From the NCBI GenBank assembly GCA_039588155.1, contig JBDHAI010000001.1:1-37887 (forward strand): 37,887 nucleotides of DNA, written 5' to 3'. The position numbers and the translations under genes are program-made. The notes below the pieces were generated by a model that worked only from the letters and a program-made list of their open reading frames with translations, was not told the origin of the DNA and searched no databases. Every line of letters begins with the position of its first letter. Positions within the stretch are counted from its first letter, which is position 1. Source of the DNA: Gemmatimonadota bacterium. Lineage in GTDB: Bacteria; Gemmatimonadota; Gemmatimonadetes; Palauibacterales; KS3-K002. Positions 9,801 to 35,260 of this stretch are shown piece by piece.

Positions 9801-12086
9801 TCAGGCGAGCAGGGGCGCCTCCTCCGCCTGCCGTTCGAGGGCATCGACGACCGCGATCGCAGTCAAGTTGACGATTTCGCGCACGTCGGCGCCGCGCTGG
9901 AGGATATGCACCGGCTTCTGCATCCCGAGCAGGATGGGTCCGATCGCCGTGGCGCCACCCAGGCGGGCGAGGATCTTGTAGGCGGCGTTGGCGGTGTTGA
10001 GATCGGGGAAGACGAGGACGTTCGCCTTATCCTGAAGAGCGCTGAAGGGGTAGCGTCGCTTGAGAATATCGGGGACCACCGCGGTATCCGCCTGCATCTC
10101 GCCGTCGATGATGAGGTCGGGGCAGCGGTTCTTAACGATGGCCACGGCTTTGGCGACTTTCGCCGACTCTGGGTGGCGTACCGATCCGAAGTTGGAGAAG
10201 GAGACCATGGCGACGCGGGGATCGACGCCCAAGCGTTGTGCGAAACGAGCGGCGGAGATCGCCGTGTCCGCCAGAGTCTCGGCGTCAGTCATGATGTTCA
10301 CTGTGGTATCGGCGAAGAACATGACGTCTTTTTCCATGACCATCATGTAGAGCCCGGCGACCTTGTGAACGGAGGGGTTCATACCCACGATCTCGAGGCA
10401 GGGCCGAAGCGCATCCGGGTAGTGCATCTCTTGTCCGGCAATAAGTCCGTCCGCATCGCCCATGTGGAGCATCATGGCCGCGTAGTAGATCGGATCCTCC
10501 AGCTTTTCTAGCGCTTCGCCGCGGGTGATCCCCTTTCGCTGGCGCTCTCTGAAGAACTGTTCGACGTAGCCTTCGCGTTTGGCGTGCTCTTCAGGATCGA
10601 CGATCTCGATCTGGTCGAGCTCGAGCTCGATTCCGTATTGCTTGATCGCCCGGGTAATTCGTCTTGGACTGCCGACCAAGATGGGCTGAGCGATTCGCTC
10701 TTCCAGGCAAGTATGCGCGGCGAAGAGGATATGGTCGTCGGTCGCCTCGGGGAAAACGATCCTCTGCAGCTTTGGCGCGTGCTGTGCTTTCACGACGATA
10801 TTACGGGTGACCTCGCGCGCGCGTCCCAAACGTGACTCGAGCTCGTTGCGGTATTCCTCGAGGTCGAGCTGGACGCGCGCGACGCCCGAGTCCATGGCGG
10901 CCTTTGCGACTGCAGGCGCCTCCCAGAGCAGCACGCGGGAGTCGATGGGTTTGGGAATCAAGTAGTCGCGCCCGAAGCTGAGCTTCTGGACTCCGTAGGC
11001 GCGGGCCACGTCCTCGGGCACCGGCTCCTTGGCCAACTCAGCCAAAGCATGTGTTGCCGCCATCTTCATCGCTTCGTTGGTGGCTTTTGCGCGAGCGTCC
11101 AGTGCGCCGCGGAAGATGAACGGGAACCCGAGAACGTTGTTCACTTGGTTCGGGTAGTCGGAGCGCCCCGTGGCCATGATGATGTCCTTGCGGGCCTTGA
11201 GCGCGTCTTCCGGTAGAATCTCCGGGTCTGGATTGGCCATGGCGAATACGATGGGATCGTTGGCCATCGTCTTGATGTCGTCCGGCGTGATGACACCAGG
11301 CTGCGAGAGGCCGATGAATGCGTCGGCGTCCCTGATGGCGTCGGACAATGTCCGATCGGACGTCTTGTGCGCGAAGCGGGCCTTGTACGGGTTGAGTTTG
11401 TCGCGCTCCGAATGGATGACACCCTTGCTGTCGGTCATGAAGATATGCTCGCGCTTCGCACCTAAAGTGATGTAGTGCTCGGCGCAGGCGATTCCCGACG
11501 CGCCGGCGCCGCTCACCACGATCTTCACTTTTGCGATGTCCTTCCCGACGACCTCCAGCGCGTTTACGAGTCCGGCACCGCTGATGATCGCGGTGCCGTG
11601 CTGATCGTCATGGAATACCGGGATATTCAGGCGCTCGATCAGCGTCTTTTCGATGTAGAAGCAGTCGGGAGCCGCGATGTCCTCGAGGTTGATGCCGCCG
11701 ACGGTCGGCTCCAGCAGCTCGCAGAAGCGGATCATGTCTTCCGGATCCTCGCTGCCGACCTCCAGGTCGAACACATCGATGTCGGCAAAGCGCTTGAACA
11801 GAACGCCCTTCCCTTCCATCACCGGCTTCGACGCCAGCGCGCCAATGCGGCCGAGCCCGAGCACCGCGGTGCCGTTGGAGACGACGGCCACCAGGTTGCC
11901 GCGCGCCGTGTACTTGAAGGCCTCATCTTCGTTCTCATGGATCTCGCGGCAGGGCTCGGCGACCCCGGGCGTGTAGGCGAGCGAAAGGTCTCGCTGAGTA
12001 TTGCAGGGCTTCGTTACCTGCAAAGCGATTTTGCCGGGCCGGCCTTCGGAGTGATAGGCCAAGGCCTCATCCCGCTTGATCAGCAT
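9801..12086 (-). CDS. maeB: NADP-dependent malic enzyme (malic enzyme domain fused to a phosphotransacetylase-like domain)
   Basis: 761-aa ORF. The N-terminus [23 protein letters not shown], the NAD(P) fold [13 protein letters not shown] and a roughly 330-aa C-terminal PTA-like domain give the classic MaeB architecture. Confidence 0.95.
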
Positions 12087-12706: not shown

Positions 12707-15700
12707 TCATGTCGTCTCCGGTTGAGGGATTGGGCTCGTCGGGCCGGTCTTTCGCTGGTGCACCAGGTAGTAGATGCTAGGGACAACGATCAGCGTGAGC
12801 ACGGTTGATGCGATGGCGCCGGTGATGAGCGCGACGGCGAGCCCTTGGAAGATCGGGTCGAAGAGAATCACGATCGCACCGATCACGACAGTGCCCGCGG
12901 TGAGTGCGATGGGCCGGGTGCGCACGGCGCCGGCCTCGATCACCGCCTGTTCCAGCGGCACCCCGGCGGACCGGCGCGCCTCCAGGTAATCGATGAGCAG
13001 GATGCCGTTACGGACCATGATGCCGGCGAGGGCGATCATGCCGATCATCGACGTGGCTGTGAAGAAAGCGCCGAATATCCAGTGTCCCGGGGCGATGCCC
13101 ACGAGCGTAAGGGGAATTGCGGTCATCATGACGAGGGGGGCGACGAAGGAGCCGAACCAGGCGACAATGAGGACGTAGATGAGCAGCAGCGCTCCTCCGA
13201 AAGCGATTCCAAGGTCTCGGAAGACCTCATAGGTCACCTGCCACTCGCCGTCCCATTTCATCACCGGCTGTTCGATCAGATCGGGCTGACGCGTATAGAG
13301 CTGACCCAAGTTGGCACCGGACGGGAGTTCGATTTCCGCGAGTTGCTCTTTCAGATCGAGAATGGCGTAGACCGGACTTTCGGCTTCGCCGGCCACCTCC
13401 GCCGTCACGTAGACGACGCGTTGGCCGTTCTTACGGTCGATGACCTGCGGCGCGGTGGTCAGCTCCGGCCGCACCAACTCACTGAGCGGCACCATGCCAC
13501 TCCCGGTCATCGAAACCAGGTGAATGCTCCCAAGCCGCTCGATGCCTGAGCGCTCGCCCTCCGTGACGCGCAGGCGCACGGGGACCAACGTGCGAGCCTC
13601 CGGCTGCGACAGATAGGTAGCGATGGAACCGCCGAGCGCCGTTTGAAGCGAGCGGGCGACCGAGGCTTTGGCTACCCCGCTGAGCGCTGCTTTTTCCTCG
13701 TCGATGACCAGGCGAAACTCTTTCTGCGGCTCGTTCAGCGACCAATCGACGTCCACGACGCTGGGGTGTTCCTCGAACGAGTCGCGGATCTCTTTCGCCA
13801 CGCTGGATCGTGATTCCTCGTCCGGCCCGTAGACTTCGGCCACGAGCGTAGAGAAGACCGGCGGTCCCGGCGGGACCTCCACGATCTTCACCCGAGCACC
13901 GGTGTCGGAAGCGAGTGCCAGGCTTTGCACGATCGGCCGTACCCGCTTGGCTACGTCGTGGCTCTGAGCGCTGCGCTCCGACTTATCGACCAGGTTCACC
14001 TGGATGTCGGCGATGTTGGTGCCGCGTCGAAGGTAGTAGTGGCGGATCATGCCGTTGAAGTTGAACGGTGCGGCGGTACCCGCATAGATCTGGATGTCCG
14101 CGATCTCTGGTATTGCGACAAGCGACCGGCCGATATCGTCGGCCAGCGCCGTCGTGACCTCAAGCGGCGTACTCTCGGGCATATCGATGATGATCTGCAT
14201 CTCGTTCTTGTCGTCGAACGGCAGCATCTTCACCGACACCGCACGCGTGAAGAACATGCTCGTGGCACCGATCAATAAGATGGCCACGGCTCCGAGCATT
14301 CCCCACATCCAAATCGGTCGTCGCAGCAGCGGATTCATGATCTTGCTGTAAGCCCGATAGATCCTCGTTCGCTCGAGCACATAGGCCGGCCCGTCGTCCT
14401 TGGCGTGGGCCCGGCGTAGCAGCCGAAAAGCGAGCCAGGGTGTACCCACCAGAGCCACCGCCAGCGAGAAGAGCATCGCCACGGTTGCACCTATGGGCAT
14501 GGGGCTCATGTAGGGACCCATCAGCCCGGACACGAACAGCATGGGCAAGACAGCGGCGATTACGGTCAAGGTGGCGAGGATGGTCGGGTTCCCTACTTCG
14601 TCCACGGCGGCCCGCGCCGCCGCGCGCAATGGTCGGTCGCGCATGGCGAAGTGTCGCTCCATGTTCTCTGCGACGATGATCGAGTCGTCAATGACGATCC
14701 CTGTCACAAAGATGAGCGCGAAAAGCGTGACGCGGTTCAAGGTGTACCCGAAGAACTGGTAGACGAAGAGCGTCAACGCGAAGGTCATCGGGACCGAGAT
14801 CATGACGATGACGGCGCTCCGCCAGCCCATGGCGAAAGCGACGACGAGTCCGACGGCTACGATCGCGAGCAAGAGGTGCTCCTTCAGGGTCGCGACTTTC
14901 TCCCTGGCGGTCTCACCGTAGTTCCGGGTGATCTGCGCTTCGAGTGACTCCGGCAGGATGCTGCCGCGCAGGCTCTCGATCTTCGACTCCAGGGCTTGGC
15001 CGAGTCGTGTCGCGTCGGCACCCGGCCGTTTGGAGACCGCGATCGTCACCATCGGATCGAGATGCTCGCCGGGGACACCCGTGAAGGTGTAGTTGGAGAC
15101 TTCCTCCGGGCCATCGATGACGTCGGCCACGTCAGCGACCTGCACCAGCACACCGTCACGCACGTCGAGCACTACCGAGCCAACGTCATGGGCGGAGGCC
15201 AGGAACGGGCCCGCTGTGACCCGCACGACTTCGTCGCCCTTGGTGTACTGGCCGGCCTGCACGTTGACGTTGGCCATGCGGAGACGTTCGGCGAGCATGT
15301 TGGGGTCGACGCCGTAGGCCGCCATGCGGTCGGGTGAGAGCTCGACGCGAATCTCCCGTGAGTAGCCGCCGGTCACAACCACGTCGCGCACCTCGGGGAT
15401 GGTTTCCAGCGCGACGCGGACTTCGTCAGCAATCTGGCGCAGTGTGGCGTGGTCTTGGCCGTCGCCGGAGAGGGTAACCGTAAAGAACGGCACATCGTCG
15501 ATGGTGACCGTCTTCACCAAAGGCATGTTGAAGCCGGGTGGCATGCGTTCCGCGTACTTCATTAGGGTCGTAAACAGGCGGACCAGGCTCTCCTCCATAT
15601 CGCGGCCCACCTCGTAGCGAACCGTGACCAGGCCAAAACCCATTTCGGCATGGCTGTAGACGTATTCAACTCCCTCAATCCCCGATAGCACGTTCTCCAT

Positions 15701-19333: not shown

Positions 19334-21103
19334 GTGAAGGCACTCGCGTCACATACCGCCGCTATTGTCCTTATCCTGCTCTTCGCACTTGAGCTGCGGG
19401 CTCAGAGCGACGAAGAATGCCAGGACGGGCGGATCGCCAGTATCCAAATCATCACAGAACCCATCTTCGCCGAGGGCGCGGCGGACAGCGTCAACGGTGC
19501 GCTTTCCAAGGTATACGCAGCCGCCAATTGGCTGCACATAGAGACTCGCGAAACGTTCGTCCGGCGCGAGCTCCTGTTCAGAGAGGGGGACTGTGCGGAA
19601 CGGCTGCCCCTGACGGAGAGCGAGCGAATCTTGCGTGGATTTCGTTTTCTGGAAGCGGCGAGCGTCGAGTCGACCCAGCGGCCGGACGGTGATGTAGACG
19701 TGACGGTAACGACCAAAGACGACTGGTCGTTGCGACTCGAGCCTCGATTCAACTTCGGCGGTGGCTTCGCCGTAACGGGTATCAAGGTAGGTGACTCGAA
19801 TCTCGACGGTCGGGGCAGGTTGGTGGAGCTGTCGTACATCCTCCGCTCGGGACAAGATGATGTCCTGCTCAGCTACTTCGATCCGCAGTTCTTGATGACC
19901 CGCTGGGACTTTTCCCTGGGCGTGCTTCGTGGAGGGGCCGGCTGGACGGTCGGTCAGGCGGTTGCTTTTCCCTTCATCGGTCTCGTGGGCAGGAAGGCGG
20001 CGTTTCAGAACGCCCTGTACAGCGAGCGGGAGTTTCGCTACGTCGTAGGGGATTCGAAAGAGAGCACAACAGAGCTGCTCTTACCAACCCTTCAGAAGAC
20101 CTTCGGCCTGGGCGGAGGGCTTCGGACCCGGCCTTCTCTTCTGGGAAGGTCCACGAGACTCTGGTCGTCCGGCCTGTCCTTGTCCTACGAGGATACGAGG
20201 TACAGTTCCAGCGTTTTTGAGGACAGCACTTTCCTGTCCTCGCCGGGCGTCGCGGAGGCGATCGGGGGCGCGACATCCGCTTCGGTGTTACCGCGGAACT
20301 CTCTGCGTCTCAACGTCCTGGGTGGGGTGCGCTGGCTGGATTACGTCAAGCGCGAGGGAGTGAGCACGCTGAGGGCAGTGGAGGACATCGCGCTGGGAGC
20401 TTCAGCGGATGTGCTCGTGGGTGCAGCGCCCGAATGGTTCGGGCTAGAAGATTCGCACGTCTTGTTGGGGTTCGATCTCTATGGCGGAACGCGGGTGCGC
20501 GGCAACTGGTTTTCGGCGCTGCGGATGAACGCGGAAGCTCGCCGTGACTTGGATACGGGAAAGTGGAGAGATAGATATGCGGCTTTTCTGTGGACCAACT
20601 TCTGGGTCGTAAGCTCGCGCAGCACCAACGAGCTCACGGCTAGCTACAGCGCGGGTTGGAAGACGACCGTTCCCTTCCAATTAACGCTTGGCGGACCTTA
20701 CCGCCTGGGGGGATATTCCCTGGACCGATTCCCTAGCGGTGCACGGGCGGTTTTACGGTTGGAAAATCGTTACAATCTCACGAGGCTCGGTAAACTCATC
20801 GACTTCGGCAGTGTAGTCTTCTTCGACTTGGGCGAGGCGTGGTCGAATGGAGCGCTCTTCGGGGTCGACTCGGGCCTGCGAGCTTCGGCTGGGATCGGCC
20901 TTCGGTTTGCCGTGCCCGCCGGTAGCCGGCAGACCTATCGACTGCAGATCGGGATCCCTCTCGACGACGGGGTCAACTTCGGCGATTTCGTTTTCTCACT
21001 CAGCATCGACCGTCTCCTGAGGGTGGAGACCGATTTGATAGACCCGCAGCTGGCCCGGAGTCGCGATCCCGCGATTCGTTCCGCGGGCCGATTCCTGAAG
21101 TGA
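19334..21103 (+). CDS. Omp85/BamA-TamA family outer membrane protein (single POTRA + beta-barrel)
   Basis: Signal peptide VKALASHTAAIVLILLFALELRAQ, followed by a POTRA-like segment (IASIQIITEPIF...ERILRGFRFLEAASVEST..VDVTVTTKDDW). A roughly 450-aa region of alternating beta-strand pattern ends in an aromatic-rich C-terminus. GTG start with a weak SD. Confidence 0.75.
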   Translation: MKALASHTAAIVLILLFALELRAQSDEECQDGRIASIQIITEPIFAEGAADSVNGALSKVYAAANWLHIETRETFVRRELLFREGDCAERLPLTESERILRGFRFLEAASVESTQRPDGDVDVTVTTKDDWSLRLEPRFNFGGGFAVTGIKVGDSNLDGRGRLVELSYILRSGQDDVLLSYFDPQFLMTRWDFSLGVLRGGAGWTVGQAVAFPFIGLVGRKAAFQNALYSEREFRYVVGDSKESTTELLLPTLQKTFGLGGGLRTRPSLLGRSTRLWSSGLSLSYEDTRYSSSVFEDSTFLSSPGVAEAIGGATSASVLPRNSLRLNVLGGVRWLDYVKREGVSTLRAVEDIALGASADVLVGAAPEWFGLEDSHVLLGFDLYGGTRVRGNWFSALRMNAEARRDLDTGKWRDRYAAFLWTNFWVVSSRSTNELTASYSAGWKTTVPFQLTLGGPYRLGGYSLDRFPSGARAVLRLENRYNLTRLGKLIDFGSVVFFDLGEAWSNGALFGVDSGLRASAGIGLRFAVPAGSRQTYRLQIGIPLDDGVNFGDFVFSLSIDRLLRVETDLIDPQLARSRDPAIRSAGRFLK

Positions 21104-21272
21104 GCGTGGAAGCTGGTGTTGTTCTTGGGCGACTTGGCTTCTCCGTGCGGGCTTGTTCATTGTGGGTGCACCCGGAACCCGGCCCAGATGATTGCGGGAA
21201 CCGGCGCAGTGTGCAAAGGTTTGTAGCATGTGGAGTGGATGACGCGTGAGGCGAGATGACTCTTCAGCAAGG

Positions 21273-22139
21273 ATGCGTAGGATGAAGACGGCCACGATCC
21301 CTGTCATCGCGGTGCTGGCATCGCTGTTCGCCGGCCATCCGGCGTCGGCGCAGAGTTTCGATCATGCGATTCTCGACACGGTACTAACAGGATTCGTCCA
21401 AGCCGGCCGCGTCGACTACGCTGCCCTCAAGGTGGGCAGAGCAGGGTTAGATCGCTACTTGAGTCAGGTGGCGTCGGTCAGTGAGGCGGAATTCACTTCG
21501 TGGCCTGAGGCGGAGCGCATCGCGTACCTAATCAATGCTTACAATGCATATGTTCTCGAGACGGTCATCGACAACTATCCAATAAAGAGGAGTGGCTTCT
21601 TCAAGAAGCTCACGTCGCCTAAACGGTTCAGCTTCCCCGACAACTCGGTCCGCCACATCGACGGCGTCTTCGACGGAATCACCCACGCGGTTGCCGGCAA
21701 AGAGATGACGCTTGACGGCATCGAGCACGGTGTGTTGCGGGCCGAATACAACGAGCCTCGGATCCACTTCGCGTTGGTATGTGCAGCCGTGAGTTGTCCG
21801 TCGCTGCGCGAAGAAGCCTTTCGCGGTGATCGTCTCGACGAACAGCTCGATGACCAGGGCCGCACCTTCCTCAACGACCCGCGTTTCAACCGCTTTGAGT
21901 CCGAGGGGAGAGAGGTGTATCTGTCGAAGATCTTCGATTGGTTCGGCGATGACTTCCGTCAGTTCGCCTCCGCGACCGGTTACCAGGACGACGAAACGGT
22001 GAACGGAGTGCTGACCTTCGTTTCACGTTATCTGATCGAGAGGGTGGGCGAATTCCTCGAGAGCGGAGACTATCGAGTCCAATTCCTGAGCTACGATTGG
22101 ACTCTCAACGACCAGGCGGTCGCTGCGGCGACACAGTGA
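21273..22139 (+). CDS. DUF547 domain-containing protein, secreted
   Basis: Hallmark DUF547 motifs AYLINAYNAYVLETVI and IHFALVCAAVSCPSLR, with signal MRRMKTATIPVIAVLASLFAGHPASAQ. The start is ATG 21273 or 21282; the track lists GTG 21246. Confidence 0.85.
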   Translation: MRRMKTATIPVIAVLASLFAGHPASAQSFDHAILDTVLTGFVQAGRVDYAALKVGRAGLDRYLSQVASVSEAEFTSWPEAERIAYLINAYNAYVLETVIDNYPIKRSGFFKKLTSPKRFSFPDNSVRHIDGVFDGITHAVAGKEMTLDGIEHGVLRAEYNEPRIHFALVCAAVSCPSLREEAFRGDRLDEQLDDQGRTFLNDPRFNRFESEGREVYLSKIFDWFGDDFRQFASATGYQDDETVNGVLTFVSRYLIERVGEFLESGDYRVQFLSYDWTLNDQAVAAATQ

Positions 22140-24342
22140 GCCGCCGGCGTCCGGCGAGTCGGCTCAGCCTGACCTACCTTACAGCACTCGCCAGCGCCAT
22201 CTCCATCGCTTACGTGGCTCGGCCGTGTTCAGCGCAGGAGATCGTGCTGCGGCCGCCGACGGCCGGTGTGCAGGAGCGCGGCGACTGGAATGGGCCACGG
22301 GTCACGCAGCTCGTGAGCCGAGCCATCGAACGTCGGGCCAGTTGGGCGAGCGATGACAGGCTCCAAGACTACCGGGCACACGCGCGCGGCCACATCTACT
22401 TTCTCTACGACCTAGGTCGGAACGCCGACCGCCATTTGGTCAAGGCCGATCAGCTCGCCCTCGATCTCTACTGGCGCACCCCGGATCGGACTCGACAGAT
22501 CATCGTCGGACGCAAAGAAGAGAAGGCCCTGCCCACTAACATTCGTTATCACCTCGACCACCTCACCGTGGTCATGGACAACTTTGGTGATCGTATCTAC
22601 ATGGGTGAGGGCGCTGAGGTCAGAGATGCGCTACACCCGGCGGCGCCGGGTGCGCTGGACTTCTACGAGTATCGACTTACCGACTCCCTGACGCTGGTGT
22701 TACCCGAGCGGGATGTTCAGGTCTACAAGGCGGAGCTCAGGCCTCGGAATTCCGCTCAGCCCGGCCTGGTGGGTGCGATCTATCTCGACCGGGCAACCGC
22801 GGACATCGTCCGAATGGAGTTCACCTTTACGGCCGCTTCCTACATCGACGACACGCTCGACTACATCAACGTGCATTTGGAGAACGCGATGTGGGAGGGC
22901 CGCTACTGGCTGCCCTATCGCCAGGGTATCGAGCTGCGGCGCGAGGTGGGTCTCATCAACTTCCCCGCCGGCGGCATCATCAGGGCCGAGTTCGCTATCG
23001 GCGGCTACCGCTTCAACACCAGCTTTCCCGATGTGGTTTTTCGGGGTCCCCGCGTCAGCGCGCTACCGGCATCCGCTCGCGAGTCGTACGAGTTCCAAGA
23101 GGGGCTGTACGATGCTCTAGACCCGGAGGTCGCTACCGCGCCGCCATCGTTGGAGGAAATCCGCCGGGAAGCCACGCGTATCGTTTCGGAAGACTACCTG
23201 CGGCAAGCGAGAGGTCTGAAGCTGGCGGTGCCCGGGGTGTCTTCGGTCTTCCGTTTCCGGCGGGCCGAGGGTCTGTACCTGGGTCCGGGTGTCGGTCGTG
23301 ACTATCCGAGCGGCAGCCTCGGTGTGTTGGGCGGCTACTCGTTCGGAGCGAGCCGCTGGCAGGCGCTAGCGAAAGTAGAAACGACGGTCGCTGGGCGTTA
23401 CGAGGTCGAGCTGGCCGGCTATTACAACCGCGTGGCGGACGTTTCGATCTGGCAGCCGAGTTCGGGGATCATCGCCACGCTCTCGGCACTCATCGACGGT
23501 GAAGACCACCGAGAGCCTTACTGGGCCAGCGGCGGTCGGCTGACGGTAGGCCAGGCCTGGGGCCGGGCACGGGCGAGGATCTCGCTGGGGTTCGAGGACT
23601 GGGAGGCCGCGCAGCTGACTGCCACGAAGACGATCGATCGCGGCTATCGTGAGGTGCGCGAGCCAGGCGACTTCACCGGCATCGAGCTCGCGCACCTCAC
23701 GATCGCGGCTATCGTGAGGTGCGCGAGCTCGATGCCGGTGAAGTCGCCTGGCTCGCGTTTCAATTCGACGGCCGACCCGTGGGCGCGGTGGAGACGGTGG
23801 GCGGCGCGTCGTGGGACACGCGTCTCGAGGGCGCCACCCGCCAGGTAGCCGGCGATTTCGAGTACGTGCAACTCGCCCTGCGGGTTGGGCAACTGTGGCC
23901 GGACCTGGTGGCCGGGACCGGCCTTCGCCTGAGCGCCGCCGCCGGTGCGGTCGGTGGCGGCACCATCCCGGCTCAACGGCTGTTCGCGGCCGGTGGCCGG
24001 GGCACCGTTCGCGGTTATTCCTTTCACCGGTTCGTCGGAAACCTGTACGGCGCGGTGGGGCTCGAGCTCGCGCGCCGGTTCTGGTACCCCTACGTGTCCA
24101 TCGATCTCTTTGCGGACATGGGTTGGGTGGGCATCGAGGGGAACGGAGCAGCCGCGGCGGTGGCTGGGTGGAATCGCGTCGGTGAGCGAGCCGGCGCGAC
24201 CCGTGGCCCGCTGATCGGTGTGGGAGCCGGTGTTGGTCTGGTGTTCGACATTCTGTGGGTCGAGCTGGCCCGAGGGGTGAGACAGGGTGGCAACTGGGAG
24301 CTCATTGTAAGGGTGAGGTCCGAGTTCTGGCCCTGGTTGTGA
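22136..24342 (+). pseudogene. Large Omp85-like outer membrane protein, reading frame broken by a 65-bp inverted duplication (or an assembly artefact)
   Basis: Track ORFs 22097..23848 and 23719..24342 are in different frames. Deleting 23663..23727 fuses them in frame into a 713-aa protein. Its C-terminus (RLFAAGGRGTVRGYSFHRFVGNLYGAVGLELARRF...GVGAGVGLVFDILWVELARG) looks like an Omp85/surface-antigen barrel with the VRGY loop-6 motif. GTG 22136 overlaps the DUF547 stop (GTGA). Confidence 0.7.
23663..23751. repeat. Perfect inverted repeat, 41-bp arms with a 7-nt spacer, inside the Omp85-like gene
   Basis: 23663..23703 (ccaggcgacttcaccggcatcgagctcgcgcacctcacgat) is the exact reverse complement of 23711..23751. 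In addition, the 28 bp at 23635..23662 are repeated directly at 23700..23727. Confidence 0.95.
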
Positions 24343-29963: not shown

Positions 29964-31364
29964 TTAGGAGTAGAGAGCCTGGACCGCTTCGCGGAACGCC
30001 CGGCGCGATTCGACGGTCAGCCGGAAAGCCCCGGTGGCGGTCGAGTCGGTGAAGACGAGACGCAACTCGAAATCCAGTGACTTGTCATACACCCAGACCT
30101 GACTCTGCTCCTGCACCTGCCCGGAGTCGAGGTGGCGCATCACCTCGTCAGGGGGGCCAAAGGTGATATACACCGCACCGCGATCTGTGAGCCACCCCGC
30201 AGTTCCTGCCTCGCCGAAGCGGTCATTCGCCTCGGCAATCCTGCGAAAGTACAGCTCGAAGAACTCGTTCTCGTCCGTCTCCGGAACGGGGTCCTTCTGT
30301 TTCCAAAACGCCTGCAACTGGTGTGCCCGTTCCCCGGGAGGGGTGCTGAGCAGGCTGTCGAGGGCGGCGGGTGTCGCGGCATATCGCAAGAAGCTCATGG
30401 CTTGCTGATAGTCGGTGACCACCCAAGTCGGAGTGAGTGCAACGATTAGGGCCGTCGGGTCGGAGGTCGTCGACGCGCCGAGCTGGGAACGGAGCGAGAG
30501 TGTGCCGGGCGGTAGCCTGTCGGGCTTTAGGGAAACCGTCGCCGAGCGAAGTTGGCCCGGGTCCGGTCGAAAGTTCACAGTGTCGGTCGTGATGACCTGT
30601 CCTTCCAAGCGGGTCTCGAGGACCAGGAGATCGGCGTCCGCGGCGGCGCCCTCGGTGTAGATCAGCAGTTCGGAGTGTCCGAAGGCAACGGTGGCTCTGG
30701 GGTTGATGATGAGCGAGGGTAGCGAGTCTCGGACTTCGCGTGGAGTGGCGCGGTGGACGATGAGGGGCGCGGTGACGAATGGCGGCTGAAAACGGGGTAC
30801 GTGCAGTTCGGTATGGGCGGTCATGCCTTCGGCAGAGGCAAGGTCGCGGACGGCGATTCGAGCCGGGTAGTCCCCGGGTTCGAGTGCGAGGAACGCTTGG
30901 AAAACCACGCTTTCATCCCGACGGGACGTCTCGCGGAAGCTGCGAACGCGGACTTCCTGGGTTTCGTCGAGTTGAGCGGCGGGGGCCGCGCTGTCGCCCA
31001 CGACGATCTCGACGCCATAGCGGGCCACAAAGAGTTGTTGGTCGCGGCGAAACTTGAGTGCTGCGTTCGGCAGGCTGAGAGCGAAGACGCCGTAAGTGCT
31101 GTCGGCGGGACCGGGCAGGTAGGCGACGTTGCCGACGGCTGGAAAGCGGGGCTCACCGACGAGGAATCCGAGTCCTCTGTACACGCCGAGGGGATTAGGT
31201 ACCGGTTCCGTCTCGGTGACGATTTCGCTGGGCGAAGGCTGGCCCGTAGTACCCGCTGGCCCGCAGGCGGCAGCCAGCCGGGCCAAGGCGACGAGCGCCA
31301 GCAAAAAAGGGCCACCTCGGCGGTGGCCCTTCTTGCGCAATTTTGGCTCAGGTCCAGGACTCAC
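29964..31364 (-). CDS. GWxTD domain-containing lipoprotein
   Basis: The C-terminal domain reads FWKQKDPVPETDENEFFELYFRRIAEANDRFGEAGTAGWLTDRGAVYITFGPPDEV (GWLTD). The lipobox is LARLAAAC. The GTG start overlaps the stop of the upstream ExbB-like gene (GTGA). Confidence 0.85.
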   Translation of the reverse strand: MSPGPEPKLRKKGHRRGGPFLLALVALARLAAACGPAGTTGQPSPSEIVTETEPVPNPLGVYRGLGFLVGEPRFPAVGNVAYLPGPADSTYGVFALSLPNAALKFRRDQQLFVARYGVEIVVGDSAAPAAQLDETQEVRVRSFRETSRRDESVVFQAFLALEPGDYPARIAVRDLASAEGMTAHTELHVPRFQPPFVTAPLIVHRATPREVRDSLPSLIINPRATVAFGHSELLIYTEGAAADADLLVLETRLEGQVITTDTVNFRPDPGQLRSATVSLKPDRLPPGTLSLRSQLGASTTSDPTALIVALTPTWVVTDYQQAMSFLRYAATPAALDSLLSTPPGERAHQLQAFWKQKDPVPETDENEFFELYFRRIAEANDRFGEAGTAGWLTDRGAVYITFGPPDEVMRHLDSGQVQEQSQVWVYDKSLDFELRLVFTDSTATGAFRLTVESRRAFREAVQALYS

Positions 31365-32160: not shown

Positions 32161-33165
32161 TCAAGACTGCGAGCCACCCGCGCCTGCGGGGGCTCTAATC
32201 TTGTGACACGCCGCCAGCCCGCCCCCCATTTGCCGCTCCAAACGCGGGCTCTCCGACCGGCAAACATCATCGACGTCCGGGTGGGGGCAACGGGGGTGGA
32301 ATCGGCAGCCCGGCGGGGGGCTGGCGGAGCTCGCCACGTCACCCAACAAGGCGATCCGCCGGCCGGACCTGCCGCGTTTGGGATCCGGGACCGCCGAGAG
32401 CAGCGTCTGAGTGTACGGATGGGCGGCTCCTCGGAAGAGTTCGTCCGCGTCGTCGAGCTCCACGATCCGACCCAGGTACATGACGGCCACCCGGTTCGCC
32501 ACGTGCCGAACCACCGACAGGTCGTGGGTGATGAACAGGTAGGTCAACTCGAATCGCTGCTGCAGTTCCGCCAGCAGGTTGAGCACCTGGGCCTGGACCG
32601 AGACGTCCAGCGCCGAAACCGGCTCATCGGCGACGATGAACTCGGGCTCCACGGCCAGCGCTCGGGCGATGCCGATACGTTGGCGCTGACCGCCCGAAAA
32701 CTCATGCGGGTATTTCGCCTCGGCATCGGTGTGGAGGCCGACGGCGTCCAGTAGCTCGACGACGCGCCGATTCGCGTCGCTGCCCGTGGCGATCCCGTGC
32801 GCGCTCAGCACCTCCCGGATCATCCCGCCCACAGTCATCCGCGGATTGAGTGAGCCGAAGGGATCCTGAAAGACGAGCTGGGCTCGGCGCCGGAAACGGC
32901 GGAGTCCGGCATGGTTCAGTTGGGCGATGTCCTGGCCGTCGAAGGCCACCTGGCCGCCGCTGGGCTCGAGCAGTCGCAGGATCAGTCTTCCCGTCGTGGT
33001 CTTCCCGCAACCCGACTCGCCCACCAGAGCGAGGGTCTCACCGCGCCGGATCTCGAACGACACACCATCGACGGCGCGAACGTAGCCGGTCGTCTTACCG
33101 AAGACGCCGCGGCGAATCGGGAAGTGTTTCTCGAGCTCAGCGACGACGACCAGAGGTGAATTCAC
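32161..33165 (-). CDS. Peptide/nickel ABC transporter ATP-binding protein (OppF/DppF-type)
   Basis: Walker A GESGCGKTT, signature FSGGQRQRIGIARAL, Walker B FIVADEPVSALD and a C-terminal oligopeptide-transporter extension with 4 Cys. I moved the start to GTG 33165, which has GGAGG 7 nt upstream and a GTGA overlap with the OppD stop. Confidence 0.9.
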   Translation of the reverse strand: MNSPLVVVAELEKHFPIRRGVFGKTTGYVRAVDGVSFEIRRGETLALVGESGCGKTTTGRLILRLLEPSGGQVAFDGQDIAQLNHAGLRRFRRRAQLVFQDPFGSLNPRMTVGGMIREVLSAHGIATGSDANRRVVELLDAVGLHTDAEAKYPHEFSGGQRQRIGIARALAVEPEFIVADEPVSALDVSVQAQVLNLLAELQQRFELTYLFITHDLSVVRHVANRVAVMYLGRIVELDDADELFRGAAHPYTQTLLSAVPDPKRGRSGRRIALLGDVASSASPPPGCRFHPRCPHPDVDDVCRSESPRLERQMGGGLAACHKIRAPAGAGGSQS

Positions 33166-34130
33166 GGGCTCGCCTCCCCCAGCGGTGTCGTGCCGGTCGA
33201 GGCGCGCCGAGTCGGGTCGTCCTGCAACCAACAGCGGCAAGTGCGACCGGCGACTATCAGCGGTGGGGCATCGTCTCGGCAGCGGTCCCAGGCGTGGGGG
33301 CAGCGAGGGTGGAAGCGGCAGCCGGCGGGCCAGCTTTTCGGGTTGGGAACGCTCCCAGGTATGACAGCGAGTCGTGGCTGTCTGCGGCCCAAGCGGGGAA
33401 GGGCTTCGAGTAGACCTTCGGTATAGGGATGTGAGGGGCGCTCGAAGACCTCCGCCGCCGTACCGCCCTCGACGGCCTGGCCCGCATACATGACCAGGAC
33501 ACGGTCGGCGATCTGCGAGACGACTCCGAGGTCGTGGCTGACGAAGATGAGGGCCATCCCGAGGCGCGCCTGGAGGTCCGAAAGCAGGTCGAGGATCTCC
33601 GCTTGGATGGTGACGTCGAGCGCCGTGGTGGGTTCGTCGGCGATGACGACGCCGGGTTCGCAGGCGAGCGCCATGGCGATCATGGCGCGCTGCCGCATCC
33701 CCCCGGAGAATTCGTGCGGGTAATCTGTCACCCGGGCGGCGGGGTCCGGAATACCGACCAGCTCGAGCATCTCGATTGCTCTGGCGCGGGCCGCGCGCTT
33801 GTTCGTGGCCTGGTGAGCCCGGATGGTCTCTGAGATCTGGTTGCCGATGGTGTAGACCGGGTTGAGGCTGGTCATCGGTTCCTGGAAAACCATCGAGATG
33901 TCGTTGCCGCGGATCTTCTGCATCTCTTTATCTGGAACCTGAATCAAGTCGCGATCGCGGAAGAGAACGCGACTACCGGCTTCGATGACACCGGGCACCT
34001 CGACGAGCCGCAAAATGGATAGACACGCTATCGTCTTGTCGAAGCTCAAGCCGTCGACCGCGCGGACCACTCCGTCTTCCGTATGGAAGTAGGTGCGAAG
34101 GTTCTCGACGCTCAGGACGATGTCGCTCAC
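33162..34130 (-). CDS. Peptide/nickel ABC transporter ATPase (OppD/DppD-type) lacking the Walker A loop
   Basis: Q-loop MVFQEPMTSLNP, signature FSGGMRQRAMIAMAL, Walker B VVIADEPTTALD and H-loop FVSHDL are present. The region between VDGLSFD and KTIACLSILRL lacks the expected GExGxGK segment. I moved the start to GTG 34130 (GTGA overlap with the OppC stop). Confidence 0.85.
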   Translation of the reverse strand: MSDIVLSVENLRTYFHTEDGVVRAVDGLSFDKTIACLSILRLVEVPGVIEAGSRVLFRDRDLIQVPDKEMQKIRGNDISMVFQEPMTSLNPVYTIGNQISETIRAHQATNKRAARARAIEMLELVGIPDPAARVTDYPHEFSGGMRQRAMIAMALACEPGVVIADEPTTALDVTIQAEILDLLSDLQARLGMALIFVSHDLGVVSQIADRVLVMYAGQAVEGGTAAEVFERPSHPYTEGLLEALPRLGRRQPRLAVIPGSVPNPKSWPAGCRFHPRCPHAWDRCRDDAPPLIVAGRTCRCWLQDDPTRRASTGTTPLGEASP

Positions 34131-35260
34131 GTGCGTATCCTCAGCCTGGGATCGAGAGCATCGCGCAGTCCGTCGCCCACGAGATTGAACGCAACCACCG
34201 TCAGCACGATAGCGAGCCCGGGGAAGGTCGAGACCCACCAGGCCGTCACCATGAACTCGCGGCCATCGTTGATCATGTTGCCCCAGGACGGGGTCGGCGG
34301 CTGCACGCCGAAACCGAGAAACGACAGGCCGGCCTCGATGAGGATGATGTTGCCGAGACCCAGCGTGGCGGCCACGATCACGGGCCCCATCACGTTGGGA
34401 ATGATGTGGCGGAAGATGATACGCGGCGCGCCAAGTCCGAGCACGCGTGCCGCCTGGATGAAGTCACGCTCACGCAGCGATAGGACCTCGCCGCGAACGA
34501 TACGGGCCGTAGATGGCCACAGCGTCAAGCCGAGCACGGCGATGACCAGCGAGATGGAGGGCTCGAACAGCGCGATGACGGCGATCAAGAGCACGAGGCG
34601 CGGGAACGAGATGAGCATATCGACGAAGCGCATCAGAATGGTATCGACCACGCCACCGAAGTAGCCGGCGACCGCCCCGATCAGCGTGCCCAGCGTGATC
34701 GAGATGGCGATAGCTATGAACCCGATGGCCAGGCTTATGCGCGCACCGAAGAGAACGCGAGTCAAGACATCGCGCCCGAAGCGATCGGTTCCCATGAGGT
34801 GATCGAGGGAAGGCGGCAAGTGCCGCGTGGCCGCTACGTCGCCGATCGCGATCGGGTCGTGCGGCGTCAGGTACGCGCCAAGCAGGGTGGCAACATACAA
34901 GAACGCCATGAGATAGAGGCCGAGCAGCGCCGCACGGTTCTTCTTGAACTCGCGCCAAGCCAGCGTCCATTGGGATTGGCTTCCCTCCACGACCCCGGCG
35001 CCCATGGCCGTTGCAGCGCCCAGCTTCCAGACCAGTGCGAGACCTGCGATGAGTGTGAACAGCGCGAGCCAGTAATCGATGCGGCCGGCGGTGAAGGTCG
35101 CCCAGACCCGGTCGAAGGCGAAAACGAGTACCGCGACCAGAAAGAGCGTCGCCATCAGCAGCGAGAGCCCAAGCAACCGCTCACCGCGCCGCAGCTGAGT
35201 CAGCCCGGGAACGAGCGCCGCGAGGCGACGGCGCTTGCCTGCTCCGCTCGCGTCATTCAT
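34127..35260 (-). CDS. Peptide ABC transporter permease (OppC/DppC-type) with an extra N-terminal membrane segment
   Basis: 377 aa. The OppC N-terminal box is WREFKKNRAALLGLYLMA and the BPD-transport EAA region is SLRERDFIQAARVLGLGAPRIIFRHIIPN. It is preceded by roughly 95 extra residues containing two hydrophobic helices. Confidence 0.9.
   Translation of the reverse strand: MNDASGAGKRRRLAALVPGLTQLRRGERLLGLSLLMATLFLVAVLVFAFDRVWATFTAGRIDYWLALFTLIAGLALVWKLGAATAMGAGVVEGSQSQWTLAWREFKKNRAALLGLYLMAFLYVATLLGAYLTPHDPIAIGDVAATRHLPPSLDHLMGTDRFGRDVLTRVLFGARISLAIGFIAIAISITLGTLIGAVAGYFGGVVDTILMRFVDMLISFPRLVLLIAVIALFEPSISLVIAVLGLTLWPSTARIVRGEVLSLRERDFIQAARVLGLGAPRIIFRHIIPNVMGPVIVAATLGLGNIILIEAGLSFLGFGVQPPTPSWGNMINDGREFMVTAWWVSTFPGLAIVLTVVAFNLVGDGLRDALDPRLRIRT

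Follow-up and report, generated by a model that had tools for sequence, protein, structure and literature searches.

The window, by which we mean the whole 37,887-nucleotide stretch of DNA analysed, carries an Omp85-family gene that is broken into two open reading frames by a short and entirely local rearrangement. Comparison with a sister allele identifies positions 23663-23727 on the forward strand as a 65-nt insertion, missing in the sister contig, that is built from local sequence only. Its first 41 nt are the reverse complement of positions 23646-23686, numbered on the uninterrupted gene, and its last 24 nt are a copy of 23639-23662; these two pieces account for all 65 bases, as expected from the earlier claim that every inserted base had been copied from the flanking gene. 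Its placement is ambiguous within a 29-nt direct repeat, the forward-strand copies of which lie at 23635-23663 and 23700-23728 with identical sequence, the first containing CGAT (23635-23638) and CGCGAGC (23657-23663). Without the insertion the gene reads GTGCGCGAG joined directly to CTCGATGCC, and with it there are novel junctions at 23662/23663 and 23703/23704.

The local structure is a long perfect palindrome. The segment at 23646-23662 recurs exactly at 23711-23727, and the segments at 23687-23703 and 23663-23686 are exact reverse complements of it and of 23728-23751, just as the sequence-only reading had laid them out. That reading also gave a 41-bp inverted repeat and a 28-bp direct repeat (23635-23662 = 23700-23727); the perfect pairing, the 7-nt spacer and the direct repeat itself were correct, but both lengths were too short, since the arms by sequence identity are 47 nt each (left arm 23657-23703, right arm 23711-23757) and the direct repeat extends to 29 nt. 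The right arm is original gene sequence, the spacer CGCGGCT (23704-23710) keeps its ancestral orientation, and the outer 6 nt of the inverted repeat (CGCGAG/CTCGCG) were already in the uninterrupted gene. On the forward strand at 23751-23757 lies GCTCGCG, the pre-existing partner of CGCGAGC and the landing site of the first jump in the event reconstructed below. This is the only inverted repeat of at least 30 nt in the 37.9-kb window, and the palindrome region, folded as single-stranded DNA, reaches -77 kcal/mol compared to -33.6 +/- 3.1 for shuffled sequences (z = -14); the inverted repeat is well beyond chance. There were no matches at the site in Rfam or in a promoter and terminator scan, which rules out a known RNA element or terminator. 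The 28-nt repeat had no exact occurrence in the metagenome and genome collections scanned, so a third strain was not obtained for comparison.

Deleting 23663-23727 restores a single open reading frame of 713 residues with a GTG start at 22136, in agreement with the proposal that the two frames at 22097-23848 and 23719-24342, both recovered in our check of open reading frames, derive from one gene. The additional 65 nt shift the frame at codon 509/510. The resulting 5′ fragment (22136-23848, forward strand) has 509 native residues followed by a 61-residue out-of-frame tail and is called publicly as a protein of 570 residues. The 3′ fragment (23779-24342, forward strand, the longest open reading frame starting at 23719) has public calls of 187 and 181 residues, and contains the loop-6 motif GGRGTVRGY but no signal peptide. 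Public annotation gives the 187-residue form the name “outer membrane protein assembly factor BamA”.

When the repaired protein was used as query, a full-length protein of 713 residues (P0001) was found and is listed at 100% identity, with one residue, G versus R, differing from the repaired translation. It is borne by a sister contig, IMG Ga0452209_007265 (sample 3300041085, 49,966 bp), which is GenBank JBDGYZ010000017.1 of assembly GCA_039588815.1. We rebuilt 39.2 kb of this contig from three loci for comparison; it is 99.7% identical to the window over 37.1 kb (window 1-37123), and in the 160 nt around the site it equals the repaired window sequence exactly and encodes the 713-residue product. 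The 90% protein cluster of this protein has members from just two contigs, that of the window and its sister; in it the public gene calls of the window contig are 570 residues plus 187 or 181 residues, and the split is thus already in the deposited record.

Homologues tell the same story. Among the matches listed for the repaired protein are about 120 homologues from Gemmatimonadota, roughly 650-720 residues long, several of which NCBI names BamA/TamA family outer membrane protein. Alignments of 20 and of 54 homologues run uninterrupted through the junction (...IDRxYRxVRxLDxGEV...), with R505, V507 and G513 conserved on either side, and none of 18 related Gemmatimonadota DNA loci has a gap at the junction (in a window of 90 residues, 17 are gap-free and one has a single-residue gap further downstream). 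The alignment of the repaired translation to orthologues that the sequence-only reading had proposed therefore gives colinearity through residue 509/510 in every case. It had named two outcomes that would speak against a single gene: neither does an orthologue end near residue 509, the homologues being single proteins of about 700 residues, nor do relatives keep the 65 bp, which is absent here from the 18 related loci and the roughly 120 homologues. We regard it as established that the insertion interrupts one conserved Omp85-family gene and, judging from these sequence comparisons, that it is a derived state private to the window scaffold. The public annotation, with its two genes of 570 and 187 or 181 residues, might be taken to favour a natural two-gene layout, and a 65-nt insertion could in principle be a mobile element or other foreign DNA, but we give almost no credence to either idea. 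Colinearity of the orthologues rules out the natural layout, as does the sister contig, with its identical flanks around one 713-residue gene. A mobile element or MITE is ruled out by the local origin of each inserted base, and the empty Rfam, promoter and terminator searches at the site also count against a foreign insertion.

The likeness of the repaired protein to the Omp85 superfamily (BamA/TamA) lies in three features. Pfam Omp85 (PF01103) matches residues 537-683 with 28.8 bits against a gathering cut-off of 24; the loop-6 (V/I)RG(Y/F) motif is present as GGRGTVRGY at residues 598-606 and is nearly invariant in 54 homologues; and an AlphaFold model (pLDDT 82.5) has a C-terminal beta-barrel. 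The first two bear out the earlier claim of an Omp85 VRGY-type motif in the C-terminus. Foldseek relates the model to BamA barrels with E about 1e-11 (TM about 0.6 on target) and to TamA, while a sequence-profile search of the PDB gave no match, so that fold search alone provided structural matches. The protein differs from BamA and TamA in its N-terminal half, where POTRA domains were not detected (no match at E <= 1) and where there is instead a sub-threshold match to DUF5686; the NCBIfam Omp85_fam model scores 13.8 bits compared to a cut-off of 200. These differences point to a Gemmatimonadota-specific Omp85-family protein and not to a BamA or TamA orthologue. Residues 50-300 (window 22283-23035) form an all-beta domain, and this all-beta, DUF5686-like N-terminal architecture is kept across Gemmatimonadota and Longimicrobiaceae homologues. 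In the predicted structure the break falls between the strands at 478-491 and 513-524, and therefore the 5′ product would be expected to miss about half of the barrel together with GGRGTVRGY. Directly upstream, window 19334-22139 contains a second Omp85-like gene (589 residues, weak PF01103 match) and a DUF547 gene, whose stop codon shares bases with the GTG at which the broken gene starts (22136-22139). This adjacency and overlap suggest one operon with two Omp85-family barrels.

A single four-point template switch applied to the sister allele rebuilds the window base for base, and the template-switch signature that had been read from the sequence is therefore present in full. The first fragment (F1) runs to 23662, the second (F2) is the reverse complement of 23646-23686 (41 nt), and the third (F3) resumes at 23639 so that 24 nt are copied again. 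The first switch has 8 equivalent positions, corresponding to a 7-nt microhomology (CGCGAGC/GCTCGCG), and the second has 5, corresponding to a 4-nt microhomology (CGAT). Whichever strand is described, the switch points come in the order 4-3-1-2 and the return lies behind the departure; an equivalent description is an intra-strand snap-back on the other strand, in which the 4-nt stem comes first and the 7-nt pairing serves the return. This geometry is established. In the ancestral sequence, CGCGAGC and GCTCGCG pair into a 7-bp stem closing a 22-nt loop, a stem that is retained in the centroid of the fold, and CGAT and ATCG form a 4-bp stem flanking the 7-nt spacer, yet the fold as a whole is no better than that of shuffles (z = +0.7). 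The ancestor is thus no quasipalindrome, and the event is not a classical Ripley quasipalindrome correction.

As a mechanism, we envisage that the growing strand would exit its template after ...CGCGAGC, pair anew with GCTCGCG located 23 nt downstream on the strand of opposite sense, and copy 41 nt backwards. It would then return via CGAT to a point 24 nt behind its departure and copy that stretch again, the outcome being 65 additional nucleotides, the frameshift at codon 509/510, the 47-nt perfect palindrome and the 29-nt direct repeat. A return behind the departure would require a substantially freed 3′ end, which might be supplied by a reversed fork, by break repair, or by strand-displacing or cyclic synthesis in vitro.

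Several known classes of event resemble this one in part. In the four-point model (PMC5453318; Monttinen and Loytynoja 2022, PMC8794818), F1, a reverse-complemented F2 and F3 explain the whole difference, and insertions can make new perfect hairpins, both as here; the difference is the order 4-3-1-2 with net re-copying, a class that Loytynoja and Goldman (2017) did not observe in human-chimp comparisons and whose absence they put down to the fact that the new duplex would have to be opened (PMC5453318), so that our event lies outside the orders seen in vivo. The quasipalindrome template switch (Ripley 1982 model; E. coli thyA hotspot and lacZ QP reporters; PMC7202029) is similar in that the nascent strand copies the strand of opposite sense between short inverted repeats and returns, leaving a more perfect palindrome and, in our case, also a frameshift. 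However, classical events of this type mend a few bases in a palindrome that is already nearly perfect, whereas here an ancestor with stems of only 7 and 4 bp gained 65 nt and a newly built 47-nt palindrome. A further parallel is the snap-back of synthesis-dependent microhomology-mediated end joining (SD-MMEJ; PMC2943611, PMC5728401), in which an inverted templated insertion is left after a free 3′ end has snapped back onto a short repeat, been extended, unfolded and re-paired by microhomology. It differs in being described mainly in eukaryotes, and a simple two-ended break without a sister template does not give the 24-28-nt direct duplication found here.

Technical processes offer likenesses of their own. 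Fold-back chimeras from multiple displacement amplification (MDA; PMC9984789) and from sonication or enzymatic fragmentation (PMC10908179) also form at short natural inverted repeats. The overlap in MDA inverted chimeras is typically 5-8 nt with a peak at 7 (PMC9984789), and the first junction here is 7; such chimeras nevertheless continue inverted for hundreds of bases normally (PMC9984789), and those from libraries are usually rare, single-junction molecules (PMC10908179), whereas our event has a second junction after 41 nt and both junctions are present in the consensus, which sets it apart from the MDA type. Local assembly errors of IDBA-UD (Chen et al. 2020, PMC7111523) are similar in consisting of a short gene-breaking stretch of consensus in an otherwise accurate scaffold, with several such lesions per tens of kilobases in two sister scaffolds in our case; these errors are defined by a consensus without even one supporting read (PMC7111523), and our comparison is at the level of the consensus.

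The remaining differences between the two contigs bear on which kind of process is at work. Over 37.1 kb there are 124 SNPs, which change 76 codons synonymously and 33 nonsynonymously, with 10 intergenic; small indels are lacking altogether, and neither sequence contains Ns. The excess of synonymous changes indicates purifying selection, and the window and its sister thus represent two strains, about 99.7% identical, that are truly distinct and under selective constraint. Exactly three structural differences separate them, each of 48-65 bp and each destroying a conserved gene; one is the 65-nt insertion at window 23663-23727 in the Omp85-family gene. The next lies at window 34038 in a minus-strand open reading frame (33162-34238), where the window is without 48 bp, in frame; the deletion takes out LHAGETLGVVGESGCG, the Walker A loop of an OppD-like oligopeptide ABC ATPase, and its junction has 1 nt of microhomology and CTTG...CAAG at the edges. 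The other is in the sister, which has lost 65 bp equivalent to window 11548-11612 from a minus-strand malic enzyme (open reading frame 9801-12086). The enzyme is intact in the window at 761 residues, while the sister loses the FHDDQHGTA region and its call is shortened to 575 residues; the junction, CCTTCCCG joined to GAATACC, again shows microhomology of 1 nt, and TCCCGG-AATA-CCGGGA arises where the ends meet. That this deletion and the Omp85 insertion are both 65 bp in size is probably coincidence. We considered hairpin-skipping for the two deletions and rejected it, as their junctions do not fit clean excision of a stem-loop, and the sizes 65, 65 and 48 have no convincing relation to assembler k-mer sizes. 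An indel spectrum of 48-65 bp only is odd for natural strains.

On balance we consider the insertion slightly more likely than not to be an artefact of metagenome reconstruction, introduced by the assembler, by chimeric molecules or by both. An assembler strand switch or fold-back chimeric library molecules would have left a local error in a short-read scaffold, which would then have passed into the IMG and GenBank records. One line of argument is the company the insertion keeps. Three gene-killing lesions of 48-65 bp, one of them in the sister, stand beside a complete lack of small indels; about 3 dead genes in 34 are hard to explain as standing biology when the SNPs are under purifying selection, and together with the restricted indel sizes they fit more easily with technical lesions in both assemblies. 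The return behind the departure, of the class that Loytynoja and Goldman did not observe in vivo (PMC5453318), points the same way, as does the lack of any further template-switch footprint among the SNP clusters of the two contigs: of 10 such clusters, none has a reverse-complement source of at least 12 nt, and there is thus no independent sign of template switching in the lineage. Circumstantial provenance also leads to scaffolds made by IDBA-UD, an assembler with a record of local errors that lack support (PMC7111523). One related metagenome-assembled genome (MAG), whose accession prefix (JBDHGH) lies close by, bears the name M8-58_Bin_422, and M8-58 is a sample in a Bohai Sea sediment study that assembled 15 metagenomes with IDBA-UD v1.0.9, recovered 438 Gemmatimonadota MAGs and submitted scaffolds of at least 2 kb to IMG under GOLD Gs0149406 (PMC12345210). 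However, this tie is indirect, no mention of the scaffold having been found in the literature or the supplements of the study. Moreover, repeats of 7 nt and 4 nt do not by themselves allow a de Bruijn assembler to make up the junction k-mers, and consequently either molecules or reads with each junction existed or the error came from a small-k or local-assembly step. Other points against an artefact are that the event looks exactly as if a polymerase had switched templates, something that happens in vivo too, that library fold-back chimeras (PMC10908179) and MDA chimeras (PMC9984789) normally have the simpler forms described above, and that the two deletions, with only 1 nt of microhomology, are not obviously products of the same process as the insertion.

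A genuine template-switch or snap-back mutation in vivo, which would make this a recent null allele of the barrel protein, is a possibility that we take seriously, though tentatively. The cell's own polymerase would have made the two jumps at a stalled or reversed fork or in break repair, and the null allele would be the majority type of the sample's population. Such an event would leave just the four-point geometry seen here, which is exact and has microhomology at each of the two switches. The quality of the scaffold at the base level, with its absence of small indels and its mostly synonymous SNPs, is otherwise high, and selection may favour losing a surface protein, for instance one that serves as a phage receptor. 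Template switching at short inverted repeats is moreover established in bacteria and can, by insertion, create long perfect stems (PMC7202029, PMC8794818, PMC5453318). Against this, the ancestor had no quasipalindrome beyond the 7-bp and 4-bp stems and an unremarkable fold, the strand re-enters behind the point at which it left, and a single contig is all in which the allele has been seen. A 47-nt perfect palindrome between 29-nt direct repeats should also be unstable, an expectation that draws on work on palindromes in E. coli, and the two further mid-size gene-killing lesions within 37 kb, one per assembly, argue for a technical source. A more elaborate version of the in vivo origin seems to us improbable: in it, a snap-back on a freed 3′ end would have produced a real majority allele which, with the 48- and 65-bp deletions, would record error-prone break repair in Gemmatimonadota that grow slowly in marine sediment, and precise reversion, allowed by the 29-nt direct repeat around the 47-nt palindrome, might make it a self-reversing off-switch for a surface barrel protein. 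We consider it more improbable still that the locus is a reversible on/off switch for surface-protein phase variation, operated by precise, palindrome-aided deletion between the 29-nt repeats. A direct repeat around a palindrome would permit precise excision, and the target is an outer-membrane protein, but there is no insertion of any kind at this place in any of the 18 related loci or the roughly 120 homologues, the forward event takes two rare jumps, and a repeat tract and recombinase are both absent.

Whether artefact or real, the event is of a kind already known, and there is no new kind of system here. If it is an artefact, it matters as data hygiene only: the public records hold a broken Omp85-family protein and an Opp ATPase without its Walker A loop from the window, and a broken malic enzyme from the sister. 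IMG and GenBank list the fragments of the barrel protein as separate proteins, and the lesion has thus propagated into protein databases. Should it be real, an uncultured bacterium would here provide an uncommonly clear natural case of a long inverted-duplication template switch, with the ancestral allele in hand and both switch points readable, and the event would belong to the return-behind-departure class that was unobserved in the human-genome survey. Elsewhere in the window, tight clusters of multi-nucleotide SNPs separate the two contigs at 14924-14987 and 30733-30742, within genes for an RND transporter and a GWxTD-domain protein; copying of neighbouring sequence as its reverse complement accounts for none of them, so these may be recombination tracts.
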